Assembly: GCA_947482345.1 (NCBI GenBank)
Contig: CANKJN010000006.1
Span: forward strand, 1 to 54,945
Direction of reading: 5' to 3'
DNA from: Spartobacteria bacterium
Lineage (GTDB): Bacteria > Verrucomicrobiota > Verrucomicrobiia > Chthoniobacterales > UBA6821
DNA length: 54,945 bases
Shown here: piece by piece, positions 1,902 through 12,351 of the stretch
Numbering within the stretch: the first letter of the stretch is position 1
How the letters are laid out: each line of letters begins with the position of its first letter
The notes under the pieces: model-generated
What the model saw: the letters and a program-made list of their open reading frames with translations, nothing else
Database searches by the model: none
Told to the model about the DNA's origin: nothing
Translations under genes and position numbers: made by a program

Positions 1902-3515
1902 TTAATCGGAAGATGCCGATGGCAGGAGGGGGAGACCTAGCTCTGCCAAGAATTCGTTGTGCTTCGCCGTTGCCTTATGGATGGCTTCCTCGATTTTTAC
2001 CAACTCGCCGTGCGTTGCCTCTAGGTTGATCTCAGGTTGGGCCTCCGCTGTGCTGATGTAGCGGGAGATGTTGAGGTTGAAGTCATGCTTCTCGATCTCT
2101 GCCATCTCCACCCGACGGGAGTAGCGGGGCTCCTCAGTACGGCTCTGGTAGGTCTCGATAATCTTCGCGATATCCTCGTCACGCAGGCGGTTCTGGCGTT
2201 TGCCTTTCACGAAGTGCTCGGCGGCGTTGATGAAAAGCACGTCGTCGGGCTTCTTGCATTTCTTGAGCACGAGGATGCAGACGGGGATTCCGGTGGAGTA
2301 GAAGAGATTGGCTGGCAGGCCGATGACGGTATCGATGTGGCCGTCCTTGAGCAGTTTGGTGCGGATGCGTTCCTCGGCTCCGCCACGGAAGAGCACGCCG
2401 TGCGGCAGGATGATGGCCATCACGCCTTCGTCTTTGAGGTAGTGGAAGCCGTGCAACAGGAAGGCGAAGTCAGCGGCGGACTTGGGGGCGAGGCCGTGGC
2501 TTTTGAAGCGCACGTCGTCGGCCAGCGCGTCGGTGGGTTCCCAACGAAGGCTGAAGGGAGCATTGGCCACGATGGCGTCGAAACTCGGCTTCTTGGCCGG
2601 GTTCTGCTCCCGCATCATGTCCCATTCGTTGAGAAGGGTGTCGCCGTGGAAGATCTCAAACTCCGAGTCCTTCACCCCGTGCAGCAGCATGTTCATGCGG
2701 GCCAGGTTGTAGGTGGTGATGTTTTTCTCCTGGCCGAAGATCTTGCCGATGGTGCCGCCGGCCTTGTTCATCCTTTTGCGGACATTGAGAATCAGCGAGC
2801 CGGACCCGCAGGCGAAGTCCAGCACACTTTCCAGGCGTTTCTTGAGGCCGGTCTTCGGTTCCTGGCTGTCCAGCGTGACGATGGCGGAGAGGATATCGGA
2901 CATCTGTTGCGGGGTGTAAAACTCGCCAGCCTTCTTGCCGGACCCCGCGGCAAACTGACCGATCAGGTATTCATAGGCATCGCCCAGAGCGTCGATGTCC
3001 GTGGAGAAATCAGCCAATCCCTCGGCGATCTTCTGGATGATGGTGCAGAGCTTGGCATTCCGATCCGCATAGGTCTTGCCTAGCTTGGGGGAACTCAGGT
3101 CGATCTCCGAGAACAGGCCCTGGAAGGTGCTCTCAAAGGATTCTGTCTCGATGTATTTGAAGCCCGCTTGCAGCGTGTTCAGCAGCTCCGCATTCTGGGT
3201 GCGGGCCTGGTTGGCGATGCTGTTCCAGAGGTGTGCGGGCTGGATGACGTAATGCACCTTACGGCGCATCTGCTTTTCGAACTCCGGGATGTCGTCCACG
3301 TTGTTCGCATACCAGAGCGCCAGAGGCACCTTGCGGGTGTCGTCGCCCACTTCGGGGTAATCCCTCCCCAGTTCCTTCTTCGCTGCCGTCTCATAGTTGT
3401 CGGAGAGGTAGCGCAGGAAGAGGAAGGAGAGCATGTAGTCACGGAAGTCATCCGCATCCATCGCCCCGCGTAGTTGGTCGGCGATGCTCCAAAGGGTATT
3501 GCCCAGTTGAGTCAT
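1902..3515 (-). CDS. hsdM: Type I restriction-modification methyltransferase subunit M
   Basis: LWSIADQLRG N-terminus, GEFYTP, motif I DFACGSGSL, motif IV variant NAPF, LPHGVLFRG. Confidence 0.97.
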   Translation of the reverse strand: MTQLGNTLWSIADQLRGAMDADDFRDYMLSFLFLRYLSDNYETAAKKELGRDYPEVGDDTRKVPLALWYANNVDDIPEFEKQMRRKVHYVIQPAHLWNSIANQARTQNAELLNTLQAGFKYIETESFESTFQGLFSEIDLSSPKLGKTYADRNAKLCTIIQKIAEGLADFSTDIDALGDAYEYLIGQFAAGSGKKAGEFYTPQQMSDILSAIVTLDSQEPKTGLKKRLESVLDFACGSGSLILNVRKRMNKAGGTIGKIFGQEKNITTYNLARMNMLLHGVKDSEFEIFHGDTLLNEWDMMREQNPAKKPSFDAIVANAPFSLRWEPTDALADDVRFKSHGLAPKSAADFAFLLHGFHYLKDEGVMAIILPHGVLFRGGAEERIRTKLLKDGHIDTVIGLPANLFYSTGIPVCILVLKKCKKPDDVLFINAAEHFVKGKRQNRLRDEDIAKIIETYQSRTEEPRYSRRVEMAEIEKHDFNLNISRYISTAEAQPEINLEATHGELVKIEEAIHKATAKHNEFLAELGLPLLPSASSD

Positions 3516-3553
3516 AGAATTGAGAAGTGAGAATTTTGAAGTGAGAAAGTCAT
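3512..3553 (-). other. 13-codon bridging mini-ORF (MTFSLQNSHFSIL) encoded by a repeat arm
   Basis: ATG overlaps the four-helix-bundle stop (ATGA) and its TGA overlaps the hsdM ATG (ATGA); translation not shown. Confidence 0.45.
3516..3549. repeat. 7-nt periodic arm D (TGAGAAG family)
   Basis: agaat-tgagaag-tgagaat-tttgaag-tgagaaa; 3524-3547 matches 4939-4962 at 23/24; inverted relative to 3910-3943 and 4984-5010. Confidence 0.85.
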
Positions 3554-3909
3554 GGAGATTTCAGTTTTTTGACGATGGTTGTGAGGATGGCGACAAGTTG
3601 ATTCGCCTCGTCGAGGAGGGGTGTGAGTTGCCGTTCTGGGAGAATATCCGCAGCGAGGAGGAGGCGCAGCCAATAGTGGGTTTCGCGGGCTTCTTTGAGT
3701 GAAATAGAGACTTTGGAAAGAAAATCGGCGCGGCTTTGTCCACCCTTGGATTCTTCCAGATTGGCACCGACTGAAGTGCCGGAACGCAATAGCTGATTTG
3801 CCAAAGTCCGCGACACTCCCGGTTTCTCGTCCAACACTTGACACAGCTTTATTACCCGCACCGCAAAGGTAAAGGCACGTTCTGCAATTTCCTGTGGCTC
3901 CTCACTCAT
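3550..3909 (-). CDS. Four helix bundle protein (TIGR02436 / 23S rRNA IVP / bAvd-like family)
   Basis: QLLRSGTSVGANLEE...SRADFLSKVSISLKEARETHYWLRLL family signature, 119 aa. Confidence 0.93.
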   Translation of the reverse strand: MSEEPQEIAERAFTFAVRVIKLCQVLDEKPGVSRTLANQLLRSGTSVGANLEESKGGQSRADFLSKVSISLKEARETHYWLRLLLAADILPERQLTPLLDEANQLVAILTTIVKKLKSP

Positions 3910-3943
3910 TTTTCTAAATTCTCACTTCTCACCTCTCACTTCT
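3910..3943. repeat. 7-nt periodic arm C (CTTCTCA family)
   Basis: ttttctaaattctcacttctcacctctcacttct, inverted partner of arm D across the four helix bundle gene. Confidence 0.85.
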
Positions 3944-4937
3944 TCCGTTTCTTGAGTTTGGTTTCCAGTGCTTTGAGGTCGGCCTCATCCTGTTGATCGG
4001 CTTCGATGGCCTCGCGATTTTTGCGGTCTAGGTCGAACTTGATATAGAGTTTTCCGGTGCGCTCTTCCATCTGCTCATTGCTGATGGAACCCGCGTGCGT
4101 GAGCAGAGGGAAGCCGTTGGAGGAGATGATCTGATCCACATTCTCCCTCCAGAAGGCCATGCGCGTCTCCCGCTTGCTCTTGGCCCTCAGTTCGGCGGTT
4201 TCCAGGAAGATGACCACCAATCGGTTCAGGTTGTCGATCTCGTCCTCCGTCAGGTAGTTCTTGGCCACGAGGATGTCTGCCTTGCGCACCTTGTCACCCT
4301 TCCAGGCGAACAGGCCGAAATGCGGATCGGCAGTATTGGCCCGGGAGGTGATGAGTTCGGCGGCGGTTTTCCGCGTCACGGCAAAAATGAGCAGGTTCTG
4401 CACCGTTGCGAAAAAGACCTGCGTGGTCTTGTCGCTCTTGTCGTAGTCGCTACTCAGGGCAAAGAGGTCACGCACCTTCTGGTAGAAACGCTTCTCCGAG
4501 GCCCGGATGTCCCGGATGCGCTCCAGCATCTCGTCGAAGTAATCCGGGCGGCCATCAGGGTTCTTCAGACGCTCATCATCCATCGCGAAGCCCTTGATCA
4601 GGAATTCCTTCAGGACCGTGGAGGCCCAGCGGCGGAACTGCACGCCACGAGGCGAGCGCACCCGGTAGCCCACGGCCAGAATGGCGTCCAGATTATAAAG
4701 GGTGACGGAACGCTGCACCTCGCGCTCCCCTTCGATTTGAACTACCGAGGAATCCTCGGTAGTTGCCTCCCGGCTCAGTTCCCCATCCTCGAAGATGTTC
4801 TTCAGATGCAGCCCCACATTGTCCGTGCTTACATCAAAGAGCTGGGCCATCTCTCGCCGCGAAAGCCAGACGGTTTGATCCTTGGGCCGCAGCTTGATCT
4901 GGCTGCGCCCGTCTTCGGTGGTGTAGAGAACAATCAT
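3936..4937 (-). CDS. RhuM-family (virulence RhuM) protein
   Basis: IVLYTTEDG...YNLDAILAVGYRVRSPRGVQFRRWA...DYFDEMLERIRDIRASEKRFYQKV; family common in type I R-M loci. Confidence 0.92.
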   Translation of the reverse strand: MIVLYTTEDGRSQIKLRPKDQTVWLSRREMAQLFDVSTDNVGLHLKNIFEDGELSREATTEDSSVVQIEGEREVQRSVTLYNLDAILAVGYRVRSPRGVQFRRWASTVLKEFLIKGFAMDDERLKNPDGRPDYFDEMLERIRDIRASEKRFYQKVRDLFALSSDYDKSDKTTQVFFATVQNLLIFAVTRKTAAELITSRANTADPHFGLFAWKGDKVRKADILVAKNYLTEDEIDNLNRLVVIFLETAELRAKSKRETRMAFWRENVDQIISSNGFPLLTHAGSISNEQMEERTGKLYIKFDLDRKNREAIEADQQDEADLKALETKLKKRKK

Positions 4938-5010
4938 TGAAGTGAGAATTCTGAAGTGAGAAGCGAGAAATGACTGAGGTGACTTTTCTACGATCTCACT
5001 TCTCTCTTCC
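4938..5010. repeat. Cargo-free inverted pair of 7-nt periodic arms (B 4938-4970, A 4984-5010)
   Basis: tgaag-tgagaat-tctgaag-tgagaag-cgagaaa followed by ttttctacgatctcacttctctcttcc. Confidence 0.8.
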
Positions 5011-5052
5011 TCGAAAGGTTTTACCCAGTTGTTTTTGGTTGGTGGAGGTCAT
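4996..5052 (-). pseudogene. Orphaned hsdM N-terminal stub (MTSTNQKQLGKTFRGREK)
   Basis: QKQLGKT resembles the usual HsdM start; nt 5014-5031 match hsdM 3492-3509 at 15/18. Confidence 0.7.
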
Positions 5053-5085
5053 GCAGATCGGTAGCTGAGCAGGTTAATAAGAAAA

Positions 5086-7311
5086 TTATGGAGCTACGCC
5101 TATCACAGTGCACATGGAGGTGTAGTGAGGGAGGTCTTTCGCCTTTAGGGCTTCAATGACTTTTTTGACGGTGTTCTGCGCATTGGAAATAAAGTTTGGT
5201 TGCTGGAGAGCACGACTCCATCCCTGCAAGTGTGAAGCATCGTTAGAAAACTTCTGGATTTCTGTCTGATCAACATCCGCATCAAATAGAAGGTCGAGTT
5301 TCTTGTACCACTCTGGGACACAGGGCTTTTTGAAACCAAGGTATGCTTCGAGGAACTTACGCAGCAGGTTGGGTGAGGTATAAGCCTCATGAAGCGTTGG
5401 CGCTTGTGATGAGGAGAACTGGTGCAACTGGTCAAACACAAACTGGTATTCAGATTTGTATTTCCGAAGGAGCTTTGGAGTGTCTTCCAGCGTAGAGTGC
5501 CATAGGTGGGTGGGCTCATCTCGGTATCGCCGAGTGTAGTAAGAGCACGCATCGCCGCGATTGGTATAGTTTGGCTTCAAAAACCAATCATCCTTTAACA
5601 GTGTGTAAAGCTCACTGTTGTGCGTGGAGACAAAAATCTGTAAACACGGCTCCAGCTTTTTTGTGATCAACGCATAAATGGCGTAGATGTGGTTCGAATC
5701 GAGACTGGAAATGGGGTCGTCGATGAAGACAATCGTTTGATTTAGTGACGCGCCGTTGTTCTCAAGTGTAGCAAGGAAATAGGCAAAGGTGATGGCGGTC
5801 TTTTCGCCTTCGCTAAGGTTGCTGGCTGGTGCCCCATCGCGCCGAAACTCAAATGAGCCTCCGGGGATTTCAGCAACTGAGATGTTGTTGTCCGGCAGAA
5901 GAAACTGAACCGTCTCGTTGATCTTTTGCGCTGCGATGGATTGCTGCTGAATCTTCGCCTCGATTGCCGCCTTCTTGCCTGCAATCCTATTTAGTGAATC
6001 TTGCGCTGCATTGACCTGATCCATGGCGGCTTCAATTGCCGATTCCCTGCCTAGGACATTGTTGTCCTTGTAAAAGCTCGCAGCATGATGCTTATCGACT
6101 GCCCCTTTAGCAGCTCTTTTCTCAACGTCGATCTGTGTGCGCTTTTGATTGTGGTCTGTGACAAGCGCGTTGATGTCCAACACGAGCTGCTCAATTTCAG
6201 AGGCGCGGCCGGTAGCGACAACGCAAGCGAGCGGAGTTTCCAGGCTTAACTGCTTCAGCTTAGCAAGCTGTGTGAGTTCACCGACCGCCGCCCTTGCCCA
6301 AGTGGCCCATTCTTCGATCCTAGTCTTCAACGCAACAAACTGCGCCCGTAGGTCTGGAACAAAGTCACGTTCATCGGGAAGCTTAATGACCAGCTCTGCT
6401 TCTTCAAGTGTGGCGACTTGAGAAGCCACTTCTGCGGTTAAATCTTCGTAAGCTTCGGAGAAGTGCTTTTGCAGGGCGGTGAGACGCTCCTCAGGAATTT
6501 CTGATCCACAGAATTCGCACTGCGACGAACCCACATGATGCGACAGGCCTGTTCGTATCCATGATTCTAGGTCACGATTTTCTTTCAGTTTGGTTATGGC
6601 CTCGTTCGATGCGGTCTTCTGCATTACCGCTTGCAAGGTTAACCGCAAAGCGTCTGGATTCTCTGCTGGAGCGTTCACAGTATTGATGTTAGCCCATTGT
6701 TCTGTGCTGTGGACTAGCGCCACCTTTGCTTGGAGGTCCTTCTCGGTGAGAATAAAAGCGTCTGGCGTCGCTTTGACTCGATCAATTTCAGCTACGAGTT
6801 TGGTGCGGTTATAGGTTCTGTCTCCTGTTAAGGTGCCAAAAGACCTGGCATGATTTGTCCCTAACGAATCAAGTTCGTTTTGTAGCCGCCGGTGGTTCTC
6901 GGAGAGCCGTTCTTTGATACCTACAATTTTCGTCTCGTGCTCATTCAAACGACCAATTCGATTGCGCAGGTGGATGGTATTGCCGCCGACAATGAATACT
7001 GAAGGGGCTTGATGTTCCTGTAGAAAGTTGCGCTGAATGAAGTCGCGGTTAAAGACCTTTATGCGCGGAGGATTCGCCAGATTGGCGTGCGTCATTGTAG
7101 CTCCGCCTTGAAGCTCAACCTCGAACTGGCTTCCCTGCCACTGTGCGATTTGGTTTGGTTCAGCAAGAATCTGAAACAGCCGAGACAGCGTGGTTTTTCC
7201 CGAGTAATTCCAGCCGTAGATAAGGTTGCGCTTGGCAAAGGGAGTTGTGCCGCCCCATTGAAATTGGCGGTAGTTCCCGAAGTTCGTGAGGCGGTTGATT
7301 CTGCAGATCAT
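5086..7311 (-). CDS. AAA_13 ABC-type ATPase, RloC-like anticodon nuclease candidate
   Basis: Walker A GWNYSGKTT, coiled coil with zinc-hook CEFC, signature LSEGEK, Walker B IDDPISSLD, STHN, HEPN-like C-terminus NLLRKFLEAYL...NDASH; located between hsdS and hsdM. Confidence 0.85.
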   Translation of the reverse strand: MICRINRLTNFGNYRQFQWGGTTPFAKRNLIYGWNYSGKTTLSRLFQILAEPNQIAQWQGSQFEVELQGGATMTHANLANPPRIKVFNRDFIQRNFLQEHQAPSVFIVGGNTIHLRNRIGRLNEHETKIVGIKERLSENHRRLQNELDSLGTNHARSFGTLTGDRTYNRTKLVAEIDRVKATPDAFILTEKDLQAKVALVHSTEQWANINTVNAPAENPDALRLTLQAVMQKTASNEAITKLKENRDLESWIRTGLSHHVGSSQCEFCGSEIPEERLTALQKHFSEAYEDLTAEVASQVATLEEAELVIKLPDERDFVPDLRAQFVALKTRIEEWATWARAAVGELTQLAKLKQLSLETPLACVVATGRASEIEQLVLDINALVTDHNQKRTQIDVEKRAAKGAVDKHHAASFYKDNNVLGRESAIEAAMDQVNAAQDSLNRIAGKKAAIEAKIQQQSIAAQKINETVQFLLPDNNISVAEIPGGSFEFRRDGAPASNLSEGEKTAITFAYFLATLENNGASLNQTIVFIDDPISSLDSNHIYAIYALITKKLEPCLQIFVSTHNSELYTLLKDDWFLKPNYTNRGDACSYYTRRYRDEPTHLWHSTLEDTPKLLRKYKSEYQFVFDQLHQFSSSQAPTLHEAYTSPNLLRKFLEAYLGFKKPCVPEWYKKLDLLFDADVDQTEIQKFSNDASHLQGWSRALQQPNFISNAQNTVKKVIEALKAKDLPHYTSMCTVIGVAP

Positions 7312-7314
7312 GAT

Positions 7315-8637
7315 TCAATTATCCTCTGGGGATGGGAAAAGCTGCTGCATCAGGCCTTTCTTGTGGGTCTTGAGGGCTTCGTGCTTTTGGGTTTGCGCGG
7401 CGATGAGGTCGTCGAGGCTGGTGAGGCAGTCGGCGATGCGTTGTTGTTCGGCTATTCTGGGACAGTGGATCTCAAACTCCTTTATGCCCTGAGTCGTTAG
7501 GTTCGTGAAAACTCCTCCGTGTGTTGCTCCGCGTTCAAACTGGTTGCGAAGCGTACTCAATGTATGGAATAGAAAATCCTTATCCGCTTGCAACTCGTCT
7601 ATATCCACGAGTGCCAAGAAACCGTCGTGAATACAGGCGTCGACTGCCAGAAACGATACGATTCCAACCACCCCCGAGCAGACGATCGTTAGAGTTCCGG
7701 CTGGGCAAGGTCGGCTCATTGTTGCGCCTTCCTCGGTGAGTGAATCAATGCGAGGCGTAACCCATTTTCCATCTCGTGTGACATCCTGCACCATCAGTCG
7801 AGGAACAGGACCGCCAAAGAAACGAGGATCACCCTGTGGTCGAGGGCTAGAGCCTCTGATAACACGACTGATTTCATCCAATCGCACCCGCACCCACTCC
7901 CCGGCGTTTTGGAATTCGGGGAAGCGGAGGCGGGGTTGGGTTTCGCCTTCGCGGGGGAAAAGCTGCTGCATCAGCCCTTTTTTATGGGTCTTGAGCGCGT
8001 CCACTTTCCGCGCTTGCGCGGCCATCAGCTGGTCCACCGAACTCAGGCACTCGGCGATTTTTTGTTGTTCGGGTTCGTCTGGCCGAGGTGCGGCGGTGAA
8101 GAGGAATTGGGAGATAGAGATATTAAATCGCCCCGCTCTGGCACCTTCGTTTACTAAGCCACGCAGAGCCGCCTCATGGCTTCCAGATTCGAAATACCAT
8201 TCCCAAAAGACCGGGTTCTCGTCCGAGTGGAAGCGGAAGCACTTGTAGATCGGCGAAACGATTCCACCTTCATATTTGGACAGTCGTTTGATGGTGCCAA
8301 AGGTCGAGGCCTTTGTGGTTCTGTCGTTATAGACGAAGTCATTGCGGAGAAGTTTGAGGTATCTTTCCGCACTATCTCCCGCGATCTTTTTGCCGAAATA
8401 GTCGCTTTGAAGGACAAGGCCATGTTCGCCCGAGAGGCTCAATATATTATCTGCATCGCCCGTTACTGCCCTGTCAGATACGGGCCGGGCAATCTTCTGG
8501 AGTTGTGCCACCTTCCATCCTGCCAACTTCCGAAACTCCGGGAACCGCAGCTTCGGCACCAGCGCGGGCGTTGCCTCTTCCTTTTGGGTCTCACACGAAG
8601 ACACGAAGGCACGAAGGTTTTTGGATTTCTTAATCAT
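7315..8637 (-). CDS. hsdS: Type I restriction-modification specificity subunit S
   Basis: PKLRFPEF/PRLRFPEF and two EQQ.IA.CL.S.D...LKTHKKGLMQQLFP conserved blocks separating two TRDs; ATG 8637 preceded by GAGGG. Confidence 0.95.
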   Translation of the reverse strand: MIKKSKNLRAFVSSCETQKEEATPALVPKLRFPEFRKLAGWKVAQLQKIARPVSDRAVTGDADNILSLSGEHGLVLQSDYFGKKIAGDSAERYLKLLRNDFVYNDRTTKASTFGTIKRLSKYEGGIVSPIYKCFRFHSDENPVFWEWYFESGSHEAALRGLVNEGARAGRFNISISQFLFTAAPRPDEPEQQKIAECLSSVDQLMAAQARKVDALKTHKKGLMQQLFPREGETQPRLRFPEFQNAGEWVRVRLDEISRVIRGSSPRPQGDPRFFGGPVPRLMVQDVTRDGKWVTPRIDSLTEEGATMSRPCPAGTLTIVCSGVVGIVSFLAVDACIHDGFLALVDIDELQADKDFLFHTLSTLRNQFERGATHGGVFTNLTTQGIKEFEIHCPRIAEQQRIADCLTSLDDLIAAQTQKHEALKTHKKGLMQQLFPSPEDN

Positions 8638-8775
8638 GACATTCCCTCTTCTTCTTCGCGGCTTCGTGGCTTCGCGTGCGATTTTCCCCGAAACTCGGGA
8701 AACCATAGCTTCGGCACCAGCGCGGGCGTTGCCTCTTCCTTTTGGGTCTCACACGAAGACACGAAGGCACGAAGG
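8530..8775. repeat. Direct repeat with 158-bp period duplicating the hsdS 5' region
   Basis: 8549-8617 identical to 8707-8775 (69 bp); similarity extends to 8530/8688. Confidence 0.95.
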
Positions 8776-9278
8776 GGTTTTGTTCTGGAACTCATTGCAA
8801 TCCTCCTTCTTCTTCGTGGCTTCGTGCCTTCGTGTGAGTTTCCTGATTCAGTCTGAGTCGCGAGTTTTCAAATGACTGCGGCCCATTGAGGATGCGTTTG
8901 CAGCCGTCTTTGAAGGTGGATGCCCCGAAATTGATGAGAAGTCCCAACGGGAGACCGAGCAGACGAAGGTAGGTGAGAACTTGTTTGGAATGGACTGGAA
9001 GCAGATTCTCAACCGACTTCAGTTCGATCAAAAGTCGGTCTTCGACGATGATGTCGGCACGAAACCCTTCTTCAAAAGTCATTCCCATGAGCCGAATCGG
9101 CACGGGCACCTGCCGTTTCACAGTCAGACCTTGATCGGCAAGCATCTTTGCCAGAACCACCTCATAAACCGTTTCCAGTAAACCCGGCCCAGCCTCAACA
9201 TGCAGCTTGTAGCCACAGTCCACCACAATAGCGGATAACTCTTCCACATCCCTTCGCGCCTTCGTGTCTTCGTGTGAG
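8590..9278. repeat. Five 28-bp arms of 9-nt periodic repeat (CACGAAGRC family) in both orientations
   Basis: 8590-8617 and 8748-8775 (ctcacacgaagacacgaaggcacgaagg); inverted copies 8653-8680, 8811-8838, 9251-9278. Confidence 0.92.
8634..8795 (-). pseudogene. 53-aa duplicated hsdS N-terminal stub
   Basis: MSSRTKPLRAFVSSCETQKEEATPALVPKLWFPEFRGKSHAKPRSREEEEGMS; ATGA overlaps with GxxExxY stop and with hsdS start; absent from the ORF track. Confidence 0.75.
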
Positions 9279-9283
9279 TTCAA
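8792..9283 (-). CDS. GxxExxY protein (PD-(D/E)XK nuclease-like, TIGR04256)
   Basis: GPGLLETVY motif, RADIIVEDRLLIELKS, QVLTYLRL...GLLINFG; both termini encoded by repeat arms; TTG start overlaps hsdR stop. Confidence 0.93.
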   Translation of the reverse strand: MNSHEDTKARRDVEELSAIVVDCGYKLHVEAGPGLLETVYEVVLAKMLADQGLTVKRQVPVPIRLMGMTFEEGFRADIIVEDRLLIELKSVENLLPVHSKQVLTYLRLLGLPLGLLINFGASTFKDGCKRILNGPQSFENSRLRLNQETHTKARSHEEEGGLQ

Positions 9284-12200
9284 GATTCGTAAGCGCTGAG
9301 TCCGGAAATGTCGCGGCCACCGGCGCGTTTGGTGAGGAGGGGGTGGAGATCGGCCATGAGGGCGAGTTCGGCCTGGGTGCGGGCTTTCCAGGCGAGGTCG
9401 AGCGGCTCCAAAAGTTGGGTGAGCTGCTCTCCATCAAAGATCATGCGGTCAAGGATGCCCTCCACGAAGGCCTGCAAGGCGGCCGTGCCCAATCCGTGCT
9501 TACTGGCGATGGAGGCGAGTTCCTTAGCGTTCTTCTCTGCCTTGAAACGGGTGTAGCCGTCGCGGATGGCGGTTTCGCTGAGACCTTCGCCCGCCTGGAG
9601 CGTGCCGATGTATTCGGCGATGTCGTCGCGCTCGTTCATGAACTTGGCATCGGCGCTGATGAGGCCGATGAGTTCCTCGCGGGTCATCTTGGACTTGCCG
9701 GGCTTCTGCTCTGAGAAGCGGGCGATGAGGCCCATGATGTAGTCGTAGTCGATGACGGCGGAGGCAAAGAGGACGAACTCGAAGTCGATCTGATCCACGG
9801 GATCCTCTGAGTCTTGTTTCTCTCCAGTTTTACCCTGCTGCTCTTTGAGCTTCTTAGCGGTCTCCAGATACTGACCTTTGAAACCGCGCAGGTTTTCTTC
9901 CGGCAGTACCTGCGCGATGGCGGATTTGTTCTCCTCGGTGAGGTCGGTGTATTGGTCGAGCTGGGTCTTTAGCCGCTGGACTTCCTTGAAGCGCTCGATG
10001 AAGACGACCTTGGCGGCGTCACCCTTCAGGTTGGGAACGGAGGAAGGTGTGCAGTCGAGTCCCTGGGACTTCATGAAGGCGTCGAGCTTCTGCACCGCAG
10101 TCTCCAGCTTCTGGATAACGACGGGGGCCTTCTCCACGAGCCAGATTTCCCGTGCCTGCTCACTGGACTTCTCCCCGCTAAAGAGGGCAATGGCGGCATC
10201 CACGGAATCCTGCTGCTGGCGGAAGTCGAGGATGTTCCCGTAGGGCTTAGTGCCATTGAGCACGCGGTTGGTACGCGAGAACGCCTGAATCAAGCCGTGG
10301 TGCCGCAGGTTCTTGTCCACGTAGAGCGTGTTCAGGAACTTGGAATCAAAGCCGGTGAGCAACATGTCCACGACGATGGTGATGTCGATCTTGTGGGCGT
10401 GCGGGAAATCAGCGTTGGGCCACTGCTGGTCTTTGATGCGCTTCTGCACATCCTGATAGTAGAGGTCGAACTCGCCGATGCGGTGATTGGTGCCGTAGCG
10501 GACGTTGTAATCGGCAAGGATTACCTTGAGCGCGGCTTTCTTCCCCTCGGGGTCCACCTCATTGTCTGCCTGCTCCTGCGGCAGATCTTCCTGAATCTGC
10601 TTCACATCGGGATTCCCCTCGGCGGGCGGGGAGAAGACGCAGGCGATATTCAGCGGCTTGAACCCGGGATCAGCGGCCTGTTGCTCTTGTTCACGTTGGG
10701 CCTGCATGGTCTTGAACAGAGCATGGTATTCGATGGCGTCGTTGATGGATGAGGTGGCGAGGATGGCATTGAAGCGGCGTCCACCGGTGGCGGCGTCGTG
10801 CTTGGAGAGGATCGCCTCGATGACGGCTTTCTTCGCGATGGCCTCGCCGGGCTTGGGCGGGTTTTTTCCCTCGGGCTTGAAGTAATCGATATGGAAGCGC
10901 AGGACGTTTGCGTCTTCGATGGCGTGGGTGATGGTGTAGGCGTGGAGCTGCTTCTGGAAGAGGTCCGCCGTGGTGCGCATGGAGGCCTGCTCGTCCTCGA
11001 TCTTATGAAGGGAGGCATTGGCATCAAAGATGGGTGTGCCGGTGAAGCCGAAGAGCTGAGCCTTAGGGAAGAACTCTTTGATCGCCTTGTGGTTCTCCCC
11101 GAACTGCGAGCGGTGGCACTCATCGAAGATGAAGACGATGCGTTTGTCGCTGAGCGAAGCCAACATCTCCTTGTAGGTGGGCTGGTCGTTCTTCTTCCGC
11201 TGCTGGTTGCGCTTGCTGCTCTCATCCAGCGCGAGGCCGAGCTTCTGGATGGTGGTGACGATGACTTTGTCCGCGTAGTCCTCAGACAGGAGGCGACGGA
11301 CGAGGGCGGCGGTGTTGGTATTCTCCTCGACGCAGCCCTCCTGGAAGCGGTTGAACTCCTCGCGCGTCTGGCGGTCGAGGTCCTTGCGATCCACGACGAA
11401 GACGCATTTGTGGATGTGGTCGTTCTCCTTGAGCAGGGTGGAGGCCTTGAAGGAGGTGAGTGTTTTGCCGCTGCCGGTGGTGTGCCAGATGAAGCCGTTG
11501 CCGTTGTCCTCGTCGATGCACTTCACCAGGTGCTGTACGGCATAGACCTGATAGGGCCGCATGATCATGAGCTTCTGCTCTCCGGCGAGCAGCACCATGT
11601 AGCGGCTGATGGTCCTGCCGAGGTCGCACTTCTTCAGGAAGCACGCCGCGAACTCGTCGAGGTGGGTGATCTTGTGGTTGTCCTCGGCGGCGAACTCGTA
11701 GATGGGCAGGAAGCGCTCGTCGGCATTGAAGGCAAAGTGGCGGGCGTTGTTGTTAGCGAAGTAGTAGGTGCGGTCGCGGTTGCTGACGATGAAGAGCTGC
11801 ATGAAGCAGAGCAGCGTCTTCGCGTAGCCGTTGCCGGGGTCATTCTTGTAGTCGACGATCTGCTCCATGGCCCGGCGGGGATTCACCCCAAGGGTCTTGA
11901 GCTCGATCTGGACACAGGGTACGCCGTTGATGAGTAGGATCACATCATAACGATGGTGGCTGTAGTCGGTATTGATACGGAGCTGGTGGACGACCTCGAA
12001 GTGGTTTTTGCACCAGTCCTTGAGGTTCACCAGGGAGTAGTTCAGCGGCGTGCCATCGTCGCGAGTGAAGCTATTGATACTGCGCAGGGTCTTGGATGCA
12101 GTGAAGACATCCGATGCAACGATCTCATCGAGCAGGCGGGCAAACTCTGCATCGGTGAGAGTGACGCGATTCAGGGCCTCGAACTTCTCGCGGAAGTTAC

Positions 12201-12351
12201 GCTCCAGCGAGGCCCTGTCTTGAATATCGGACCGGTATTCATATTTCAGGCTCCGGAGTTTTTCGATGAAGGAGTCCTCAATATCTCCCTCGCGGACAAC
12301 AGCTCTTTGCGATGGAGCAGAGAGCCCGTCTGGATAGGTGGAGGAAGTCAT
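9280..12351 (-). CDS. hsdR: Type I restriction endonuclease subunit R
   Basis: RYDVILLING..VQIELK nuclease motif, WHTTGSGKT, DECHRS, FTGTP, MLLTGFD, QAFSRTNR. Confidence 0.97.
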   Translation of the reverse strand: MTSSTYPDGLSAPSQRAVVREGDIEDSFIEKLRSLKYEYRSDIQDRASLERNFREKFEALNRVTLTDAEFARLLDEIVASDVFTASKTLRSINSFTRDDGTPLNYSLVNLKDWCKNHFEVVHQLRINTDYSHHRYDVILLINGVPCVQIELKTLGVNPRRAMEQIVDYKNDPGNGYAKTLLCFMQLFIVSNRDRTYYFANNNARHFAFNADERFLPIYEFAAEDNHKITHLDEFAACFLKKCDLGRTISRYMVLLAGEQKLMIMRPYQVYAVQHLVKCIDEDNGNGFIWHTTGSGKTLTSFKASTLLKENDHIHKCVFVVDRKDLDRQTREEFNRFQEGCVEENTNTAALVRRLLSEDYADKVIVTTIQKLGLALDESSKRNQQRKKNDQPTYKEMLASLSDKRIVFIFDECHRSQFGENHKAIKEFFPKAQLFGFTGTPIFDANASLHKIEDEQASMRTTADLFQKQLHAYTITHAIEDANVLRFHIDYFKPEGKNPPKPGEAIAKKAVIEAILSKHDAATGGRRFNAILATSSINDAIEYHALFKTMQAQREQEQQAADPGFKPLNIACVFSPPAEGNPDVKQIQEDLPQEQADNEVDPEGKKAALKVILADYNVRYGTNHRIGEFDLYYQDVQKRIKDQQWPNADFPHAHKIDITIVVDMLLTGFDSKFLNTLYVDKNLRHHGLIQAFSRTNRVLNGTKPYGNILDFRQQQDSVDAAIALFSGEKSSEQAREIWLVEKAPVVIQKLETAVQKLDAFMKSQGLDCTPSSVPNLKGDAAKVVFIERFKEVQRLKTQLDQYTDLTEENKSAIAQVLPEENLRGFKGQYLETAKKLKEQQGKTGEKQDSEDPVDQIDFEFVLFASAVIDYDYIMGLIARFSEQKPGKSKMTREELIGLISADAKFMNERDDIAEYIGTLQAGEGLSETAIRDGYTRFKAEKNAKELASIASKHGLGTAALQAFVEGILDRMIFDGEQLTQLLEPLDLAWKARTQAELALMADLHPLLTKRAGGRDISGLSAYES

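Follow-up and report, generated by a model that had tools for sequence, protein, structure and literature searches.

Miniature inverted repeats such as the Correia elements of Neisseria and the ERIC/IRU elements of enterobacteria are co-transcribed with their neighbours and able to affect expression, and they are located in untranslated regions. In the intervening sequences (IVS) of 23S rRNA, inverted ends form a long stem, the loop of which holds a small open reading frame (ORF) or nothing, and translational coupling through an overlapping stop and start codon (ATGA) is common in operons. Here we describe the hsdR-hsdS junction of a restriction-modification (R-M) locus from a Spartobacteria bacterium (GenBank assembly GCA_947482345.1), located in the first 54,945 nucleotides of contig CANKJN010000006.1 (this whole stretch is referred to below as the window). 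Between hsdR and hsdS lie a small gene of the GxxExxY family and two tandem 158-bp modules, in each of which a hairpin is joined to the conserved start of hsdS. The interpretation that we put forward, and to which we would give an even chance of being right, is that the modules are passenger DNA in which coupled stop and start codons maintain the translation of hsdS, a 53-codon stub of hsdS serving as a relay frame.

The GxxExxY family is listed as being of unknown function in one source (PMC3424549), and literature searches on GxxExxY, PDDEXK_3 and PF13366 returned no published description of hairpin-armed cassettes. With the GxxExxY cassettes of other genomes, the window shares inverted arms made of tandem 8-nt units, outer ends of the form CTCA...TGAG, a small gene between arms (of which the gene's own 3' arm is decayed in the window), the existence of gene-less hairpins, presence or absence between related genomes, and insertion exactly at gene junctions. 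It differs from the usual cassettes in that its gene-less hairpin belongs to the coding start of hsdS, being fused with the conserved 5' end of that gene as a 158-bp tandem module, and in that both arms are translated, in two frames that meet at ATGA. Like REP sequences, REPINs and their RAYT genes, the system comprises short dispersed intergenic hairpin repeats and a linked gene thought to move them. However, each REP is an imperfect palindrome whereas the arms here are arrays of a non-palindromic 8-mer, and the linked gene has a PD-(D/E)XK fold and is no Y1 (HUH) transposase; Y1_Tnp has two matches in the genome, on contigs C70 and C33, and the arms are confined to the locus on C6. Compared with the 23S rRNA IVS, the element sits in a protein-coding operon and its arms are translated, and in contrast to Correia and ERIC/IRU elements it provides the next gene with a ribosome-binding site (RBS), a start codon and ten codons, and can be read from the preceding gene. 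All junctions of the chain overlap, as in operons coupled by ATGA and as at the native hsdR/hsdS junction of relatives, but here a mobile hairpin carries the overlap in its loop, and two such overlaps are linked by a frame of 53 codons without evident product function. Lastly, phase-variable type I systems carry several hsdS genes that are shuffled by recombination (PMC7394358, PMC7672463). The window resembles such loci in having duplicated hsdS sequence in one locus and recombining conserved segments, but only the first 36 residues are duplicated here, in direct orientation and without a second target-recognition domain, so that this is not a shuffling hsdS locus. What we regard as new is the fusion of a hairpin with the hsdS start as a translated ATGA module, its tandem form, and the recurrent 53-codon frame.

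Architecture of the junction modules

On the minus strand the operon reads hsdR, the GxxExxY gene, the 53-aa ORF, hsdS, an AAA_13 gene, rhuM and hsdM (Table 1), and its first junctions overlap, as TTGA at 9283 (hsdR/GxxExxY), ATGA at 8795 (GxxExxY/stub) and ATGA at 8637 (stub/hsdS). An initial annotation made from the sequence had reported a 158-bp period repeat with a 69-bp identical core, and a repeat finder recovered both copies and the core. The copies are 154 nt each, 85% identical without gaps and spaced by 158, and the 69-nt core (8549-8617 = 8707-8775) collapses to a single 69-nt unitig in two sequencing runs. The two loop strings that had been read as RBS, stop and start, GGAGGATTGCAATGA and GAGGGAATGTCATGA, are present as written. 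The claim that the 5' end of hsdS is duplicated as a 53-aa stub, with both starts displayed in hairpin loops, holds as well, since the ORF 8795-8634 ends on the ATGA of the start at 8637. The five arms counted at that time all exist, but a sixth, decayed arm (B0, the 3' arm of the cassette gene) has to be added to them.

Every arm is made up of CTCA and three tandem 8-mers CACGAAGN, or of the reverse complement before TGAG. The array (CACGAAGN)x3 contains no T and no self-complementarity, and hence no stop codon is possible in any frame of an A arm. In hairpin 1, the repeat finder paired 8748-8774 with 8812-8838 (27 nt, 93% complementary), and the predicted RNA fold has an energy of -48.7 kcal/mol (z -8.5), which was equalled by none of 200 shuffled sequences. 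Hairpin 2, with arms at about 8654-8681 and 8590-8617, is weaker (-38.6 kcal/mol, z -5.9, again equalled by 0/200 shuffles) and has 22 of 27 Watson-Crick pairs by hand count, with G-U pairs besides. The ATGA in loop 1 is at once the stop of the GxxExxY frame and the start of the stub, and that in loop 2 the stop of the stub and the start of hsdS (ATG 8637). With at most one mismatch allowed, the unit pattern CACGAAGRCACGAAG has nine matches in the 2.36-Mb genome, eight of which are at the R-M locus; the arm repeats at this locus are not due to chance. A search of 7000-10000 against Rfam gave no match at E up to 1. In 8300-9500, a promoter scan found no promoter-like site, and a terminator scan found two terminator-like sites (1.8 expected from shuffles), on the opposite strand inside the core; the hairpins do not have the feature of an intrinsic terminator or attenuator, namely a G+C-rich stem followed by a U run.

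The stub also carries a change from CTGCGG to CTATGG (R to W; 8704-8706, minus strand), which makes an ATG at 8706 in the hsdS frame, and an ORF listing consequently extends hsdS to 463 aa, across arm A3 and loop 2. There is no evident RBS before this ATG.

Table 1. Features of the hsdR-hsdS junction and of the surrounding operon, in order of transcription (positions in the window)
Feature	Position	Strand	Basis or remark
hsdR (1023 aa), first operon gene	9280..12351	-	Pfam HSDR_N, ResIII, T1R_D3-like, EcoR124_C
GxxExxY / PDDEXK_3 cassette gene	8792..9283	-	PF13366, TIGR04256
Arm A1, cassette 5' arm, CTCA(CACGAAGN)x3, read NSHEDTK	9250..9278	-	
Arm B0, decayed 3' arm of cassette gene, read SFENSRLRLNQ	about 8850..8880	-	Comparison with homologue C-termini
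Module copy 1 of 158-bp period	8688..8841	-	Repeat finder, module alignment
Arm A2, hairpin 1, translated as tail of GxxExxY frame	8812..8838	-	
Loop 1 (35 nt)	8777..8811	-	RBS AGGAGG 8802-8807; ATGA 8792-8795
53-aa stub ORF	8634..8795	-	Arm B1, hsdS start (TQKEEATPALVPKLWFPEFR), arm A3, end on hsdS ATGA
Arm B1, hairpin 1, stub codons 7-16 (PLRAFVSSCE)	8748..8776	-	
Module copy 2 of 158-bp period	8530..8683	-	Repeat finder, module alignment
Arm A3, hairpin 2, degenerate, read SHAKPRSRE	8654..8681	-	
Loop 2 (36 nt)	8618..8653	-	RBS GAGGGA 8643-8648; ATGA 8634-8637
hsdS (440 aa, ATG 8637)	7315..8637	-	Pfam Methylase_S; N-terminus matched by 305 homologues
Arm B2, hairpin 2, HsdS codons 7-16 (NLRAFVSSCE)	8590..8617	-	
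AAA_13 / PDC-S06 gene	5086..7311	-	Operon remainder
RhuM / PDC-S05 gene (rhuM)	3936..4937	-	Operon remainder
hsdM	1902..3515	-	Operon remainder (1902..7311)

The interpretation introduced above builds on this anatomy, on the empty sites of relatives, on four other loci, on the leader of many HsdS homologues, and on the recurrence of the stub and the fixation of both copies. It holds that the modules derive from hairpin-armed GxxExxY cassettes and settled in the coupled hsdR-hsdS junction of a horizontally acquired type I R-M operon. Each module has four parts: an A arm without T, open in all frames and read by the upstream ORF; a loop of 35-37 nt with RBS and ATGA; a B arm that forms codons 7-16 of the next ORF; and the conserved codons with which hsdS proper begins. 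The real hsdS starts in copy 2, and copy 1 starts the 53-codon frame, the stop of which is part of the copy 2 ATGA. Translation would be relayed from hsdR through the GxxExxY gene and the stub to hsdS by termination and re-initiation, in that a ribosome translating the preceding frame would melt the A arm, stop within the loop and begin again at the overlapping ATG, with the stub carrying ribosomes from loop 1 over B1 and A3 to loop 2. As upstream ribosomes would open the stem, no polar block would result, and the stub could persist as a relay frame. The duplication itself would be old, and inherited or spread with the locus.

Empty sites, related loci and the GxxExxY cassette family

In a genome of the same genus (G200, hsdR 85% identical at the protein level) and in G335, hsdS starts within the last codons of hsdR (ATGAGCAGTAA), and the junction holds neither a hairpin nor a GxxExxY gene; the HsdS N-terminus there reads MSSKTKTTA(T/P)KE.ATPAL.PKLRFPEFR. 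Related R-M loci, the HsdR proteins of which are 84-89% identical to that of the window, carry different passengers. One of these genomes (G184) has another GxxExxY gene at the hsdR-hsdS junction that uses the native ATG, and three loci (L061, G184:C13; L063, G162:C46; and L065) carry, as an alternative, a dinD-like gene between hsdR and hsdS. The 54 nt encoding KEEATPALVPKLRFPEFR are 91-96% identical across six related loci, and in the central conserved region of hsdS the DNA identity is 98.9% with L064 and L067 and 98.7% with L065, a likeness of conserved segments across genomes that is as expected under allele recombination. A BLAST search with 9300-8480 gave some match in 116 of the order's 401 genomes (the unpublished G158 is counted here, but no conclusion depends on it), and among the matches listed no whole module or stub occurred outside G000.

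A scan for an arm end together with the hsdS start, in all species-representative genomes and in a metagenome collection, gave two matches in each, and the module is found in these four further loci (L064, L065, L066 and L067), always with ATGA. Three of them, L064 (an Akkermansiaceae metagenome-assembled genome, MAG), L066 and L067, have the order upstream gene, GxxExxY gene with decayed B0, hairpin and hsdS, and L065 (a MAG labelled Akkermansia muciniphila) has a dinD-like gene, hairpin and hsdS. The stub is absent from all four. The hallmark of translational coupling, an upstream stop that overlaps the next start, is present in all six modules of the five loci: the upstream open frame stops on the TGA of the loop ATGA, a GGAGG-like site stands directly before the ATG, and the frame of this ATG continues into hsdS by way of the B arm. 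The upstream frame of L065 is only a mini-ORF of 19 codons, which spans the A arm from one ATGA, at the stop of the dinD-like gene, to another, at the start of hsdS. Standard pairs fill 94.2% of the pair cells of the six modules, and at three stem pairs L066 and L067 have G-C in place of A-U, hairpin 2 of the window showing the G-U intermediates, which would amount to modest covariation support for the stem. In a survey of 10 hairpins from other loci, three of the four hsdS modules had ATGA in the loop as shown, and so did L034; the fourth hsdS module (L067) lay on the opposite strand in the survey and has ATGA on its hsdS strand. We do not claim that RBS and ATGA are general to gene-less hairpins, as outside the hsdS modules of this survey an ATGA loop was seen in L034 only.

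The protein of the cassette gene scores 122.2 bits against the TIGR04256 profile (cut-off 35) and 121.6 bits against PF13366 (PDDEXK_3; cut-off 22), and it holds GPGLLETVYE (GxxExxY) and RADIIVEDRLLIELKS (D...ExK nuclease motif), the two defining motifs of the GxxExxY family. Its frame runs from TTG 9283, where TTGA overlaps the hsdR stop, through A2 to TGA 8792-8794, with the tail ...RLRLNQETHTKARSHEEEGGLQ before the stop. At 9280-9283, where the window has this TTG start, L064 and L066 have TCATGAAGGA with ATG, and the window junction appears to have lost 3 nt together with the ATG. In most of 24 loci, GxxExxY homologues start with (M)K-N-S-H-E-D-T-K on an A arm and end in SFVSSCLRVNQ (..GPQSFVSSCLRVNQ) on a B arm; as their termini are read from the arms, the usual cassette gene is enclosed by A and B arms. 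Other GxxExxY subfamilies have other units, with both arms changed together (e.g., L048 and L049). In the window, A1 is intact and the cassette gene's own 3' arm, B0, no longer pairs with any A arm (-8 to -14 kcal/mol); A1 has a near-perfect partner in B1 (-61.1 kcal/mol), which lies 502 nt downstream. To judge from these comparisons, the arms of the modules are the inverted arms of a GxxExxY (PD-(D/E)XK) cassette family.

The unit pattern was found in 33 of the 201 genomes sampled from the order, G000 being one of them, and in none of 22 other genomes of the same family, and in other genomes of the order the arm units often form intergenic hairpins with unrelated loops. Gene-less hairpins of the same arms comprise hairpins 1 and 2 of the window and those of L009, L020, L031, L034, L039 and L046. 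The genome contains five other GxxExxY-like genes (C11:8734-9135, C93:6633-6998, and one each on C25, C64 and C17), of which those on C11 and C93 have arms of the CTCTGCG/CGCAGAG type and that on C25 has arms of the GGGATRAA type; CACGAAG arms are found on none of the five. The G+C content is 55% for the R-M locus and 59.5% for the genome. Given the confinement of the arm unit to this locus within the genome, the different arms of the other GxxExxY genes, and the lower G+C content, we conclude that the R-M locus and its cassette were acquired horizontally. The genes that adjoin cassettes in L030, L032, L042, L046 and L055 have ends that we take to be those of DNA methyltransferase or restriction genes, and the cassette family may favour defence loci. 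A conserved housekeeping gene in L012 and L026, presumably that of elongation factor P, also contains the pattern CTTCGTGCCTTCGTG, which is read there as GNLRAFVQ; this is a coding coincidence and no element.

The arm-encoded leader, the recurrent stub and the age of the duplication

A protein database search with the first 60 residues of HsdS gave 305 matches with E up to 0.001, of which 120 were listed. At least 30 of the 120 listed homologues match LRA[FL][VA][SAP]S[CR]E in a 26-aa leader (e.g., MSSKSKNLRAFVSSCETQKEEATPAL), and the native leader has 18 aa (MSSKTKTTATKEEATPAL). The translation of one arm as LRAFVSSCE within HsdS, as noted in the initial annotation, is therefore confirmed and widespread. 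Other arm units account for the leader variants FASSRE and GVSASLRE, and in P0083, P0124 and P0145 the whole hairpin is translated from an upstream start. In P0145 (223 aa; from a Terrimicrobiaceae MAG according to its source), the C-terminal half of a GxxExxY protein, the hairpin and MSSKSKPLRAFASSRE...PEFRGA are read in one frame, and the sequence that follows is presumably the C-terminus of HsdM. This protein is another join at the PEFR boundary.

When the same search was limited to shorter proteins, it gave 48 matches, and 14 further ORFs of 50-60 aa in the database (eleven of them 53-54 aa) are built like the stub of the window: P0126, P0128, P0129, P0132, P0134, P0135, P0136, P0140, P0142, P0143, P0144, P0148, P0150 and P0151. 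All begin with residues encoded by an arm, continue with the start of HsdS as far as about PEFR and then read an A arm as ..(S/P)H(A/T)KARS.EEE.G.., after which they end; P0148 extends to 60 aa, and P0129 reads the arm in another frame and is back to an end of the type ..GGMQ like other stubs. Counting that of the window, 14 of 15 stubs have Q, E, S or P as their last residue, which fits NNA-TGA, i.e., ATGA. Of the alignment cells for the final four residues that derive from HsdS, 15 of 60 depart from the consensus in stubs and 10 of 116 in full-length arm-bearing proteins (Fisher p 0.005), and LVPKLRF is equally conserved in both. From these figures, the stub peptide looks relaxed near the junction, with frame and end kept. 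P0129 and the hsdS fragment P0125 have the same contig statistics (2 contigs, longest 365,237 nt), and they are the only such pair. A search of 401 genomes of the phylum for the stub pattern AAGCTGCGGTT N15-30 CRCGAAGNCRCGAAG found no match, though with a pattern so strict that the window stub itself (CTATGG) does not fit it, and viral contigs matched the stub alignment at one locus and over residues 20-36 only, which was taken for an ordinary hsdS start. The second hsdS-like match at the locus itself (8795-8688) covers only 36 N-terminal residues, in direct orientation. No second hsdS with target-recognition domains was found in the genome, in which the other hsdS-like matches are on C8 at about 25% identity.

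To place the duplication in time, the two window modules (H1, copy 1; H2, copy 2) were aligned with the four external ones over 105 columns. H1 and H2 share 82 of 105 positions and H1 and L065 share 90; against the four external modules as a whole, H1 shares 86-90 positions and H2 81-87. Among the 19 parsimony-informative columns there is none that groups the two window copies, and these columns support mutually conflicting splits, a sign that the modules have mosaic histories; in every locus, the 69-nt stretch that is identical between the copies is where the module is best conserved. A recent in-situ duplication was rejected, as H1 is closer to L065 than to H2 and no informative column unites the two copies, and the idea of a unique scar of illegitimate recombination was dropped when the 14 other stubs were found. 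The junction common to all stubs suggests a single old duplication event that would have spread and been reshuffled with the locus; less probably, duplication recurred at this site. On its left the duplication ends at the base of the A arm, i.e., of the hairpin, and on its right just after PEFR, the end of the conserved hsdS start; the first copy may have arisen by hairpin-provoked slippage or by allele capture.

In run X1, the unitig that links the copies (8588-8736, 149 nt) has a depth of 333, compared with 349 and 305 for its flanks and 720 for the 69-nt core, and in run X3 the corresponding depths are 7.9, 11.4 and 8.5, and 18.9. The two runs come from two studies, both of which are possibly sources of the assembly. 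As far as contigs tell, the duplication is not an assembly artefact, the linking unitig being at single-copy depth in both studies, and both copies are fixed in the sampled populations. The expectation that recombination between the cores would leave an in-frame hsdS proved sound, each ATG being in frame with its own core, and the predicted product has the single-module layout of L064, L066 and L067. The 158-bp deletion variants that were anticipated alongside it did not appear, in that no such joint is listed in the contigs of four runs; contigs drop rare variants, so that deletion at low frequency may still occur.

Competing explanations, operon context and implications

Several observations weigh against a relay by stop-start coupling. 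Coupling and relay are both predicted from sequence, and the RBS and start codons, located in loops, have predicted unpaired probabilities of 0.32-0.66, i.e., they are fairly open, so that direct initiation may need no relay. Because the A arm has no T, the openness of the stub frame is partly automatic, and if all stubs go back to one event, their shared frame is a single observation; moreover, the other 14 stubs were compared as protein sequences, and that each precedes a hairpin and hsdS is a presumption. The TTG start of the GxxExxY gene, which is ATG in L064 and L066, means that the first link may be weak, and the covariation set consists of six modules, among which L066 and L067 are near-identical (97/105). 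A rival explanation is a neutral scar, which we consider possible but rather doubtful. The stub would then be without a role, as a hairpin-provoked tandem duplication or a leftover of hsdS allele replacement, kept open by the stop-free A arm and kept alike by gene conversion with the hsdS start. Consistent with this, the 69-nt core is identical between the copies, the stub has W in place of the R that is otherwise near-invariant in LRFPEF, stubs in general vary more near the junction (15/60 vs 10/116, as above), the conserved regions of hsdS show 96-99% identity between distant genomes, which indicates frequent allele recombination, and P0145 joins the hsdS start after PEFRGA to other sequence. 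A mere scar accounts poorly for 14 other stubs of near-equal length with end residues that fit an ATGA overlap, and for P0129, which shifts frame within the arm and then returns; direct repeats of 69 nt should also be readily lost, yet the linking unitig is at full single-copy depth in two studies. Alternatively, the hairpin modules may be recombination sites of a GxxExxY-nuclease cassette system, forming a 158-bp, somewhat integron-like landing pad (hairpin plus conserved hsdS anchor) that captures incoming hsdS alleles downstream of the old start, in which case each stub would be the footprint of a single capture, kept translatable to avoid any break in expression, and R-M specificity would be exchanged by a dedicated element for which general recombination is unneeded; on the sequence evidence at hand we hold this to be improbable.

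The remaining explanations ascribe a function to the stems or the repeat itself. The initial annotation had proposed that mutually exclusive pairings among the arms control the supply of HsdS, and choices do exist among three A arms and two intact B arms. The duplex energies are ranked, at -61.1 (A1:B1), -57.9 (A1:B2), -47.1 (A2:B1) and -38.8 kcal/mol (A3:B2), with A1 as the best partner of either B arm. In the minimum-free-energy structure of the whole transcript, A1 pairs with B2 and A2 with B1, and A3 is unpaired; A3 is also the arm most often free in the ensemble (0.40 unpaired, compared with 0.00-0.05 for A1, A2, B1 and B2), and L064, L066 and L067 still allow both A1:B1 and A2:B1. The ranking thus stood but the control found no support, as no pairing hides the RBS or the start codon, both of which lie in a loop under every pairing scheme. 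L065 has the same loop design with one A arm and one B arm, Rfam gave no match, and the hairpins have no terminator-like tail. Nor do the arms fit a local regulator, being the termini of a dispersed cassette family found at unrelated sites, with the same loops in single-module loci. A structural switch is not supported, and we rate alternative pairing as a means of setting HsdS amount as unlikely. RNase III cuts such long stems, and the modules might be its targets, as in rRNA intervening sequences, with cleavage of the 26-27-bp stems cutting hsdS off from the message that precedes it. In favour of this, the stems are of considerable length and pair almost perfectly, and inverted arms around a small ORF recall the 23S IVS architecture. 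However, arm B lies within hsdS codons 7-16, so that a cut would lower HsdS output and, being in the coding region, would destroy a frame kept by at least 30 of the 120 listed homologues; conserved mismatches are also kept at the unit spacers in the stems, and we find this explanation very improbable. Least credible of all is phase or copy-number variation, in which core recombination would remove or add 158-bp units and vary HsdS expression within the population. The geometry permits in-frame deletion, and one-module forms exist in L064, L066 and L067, but no joint is listed in the contigs of the four runs and the linking unitig has the depth of its flanks. In addition, H1 and H2 have diverged from each other as much as from the modules of other genomes, which argues against frequent turnover, and there is no second hsdS with target-recognition domains, only the 36-aa stub match.

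Further passengers occur downstream in the operon, where the AAA_13 and RhuM genes lie between hsdS and hsdM. The AAA_13 protein (5086-7311) has a PADLOC match to PDC-S06 (742 bits) and a weak PrrC-like match at its C-terminus, the RhuM protein (3936-4937) matches PDC-S05, and in G200, of the same genus, RhuM is present and the AAA_13 gene is absent. Within hsdS, a direct repeat (7334-7451 / 7955-8072, 118 nt, 75% identity) was taken as the usual central and distal conserved regions of HsdS. When four flanking ORFs were tested with Pfam, the only families found were hsdM and amino-acid permease.

If the modules are indeed a passenger element whose stub relays translation to hsdS, selfish hairpin cassettes would be able to enter coupled gene junctions, and even the opening codons of a gene, and leave downstream genes expressed. 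This would be made possible by a stop-free arm, by an RBS with overlapping stop and start, and by a second arm that can be read as protein. It would explain both the LRAFVSSCE leader in a quarter of the listed HsdS relatives and the recurrence in metagenomes of a 53-codon frame that matches no family. The locus would then provide a concrete case of accommodation between passenger DNA and host translation in defence loci, as well as a functional angle on the GxxExxY cassettes.

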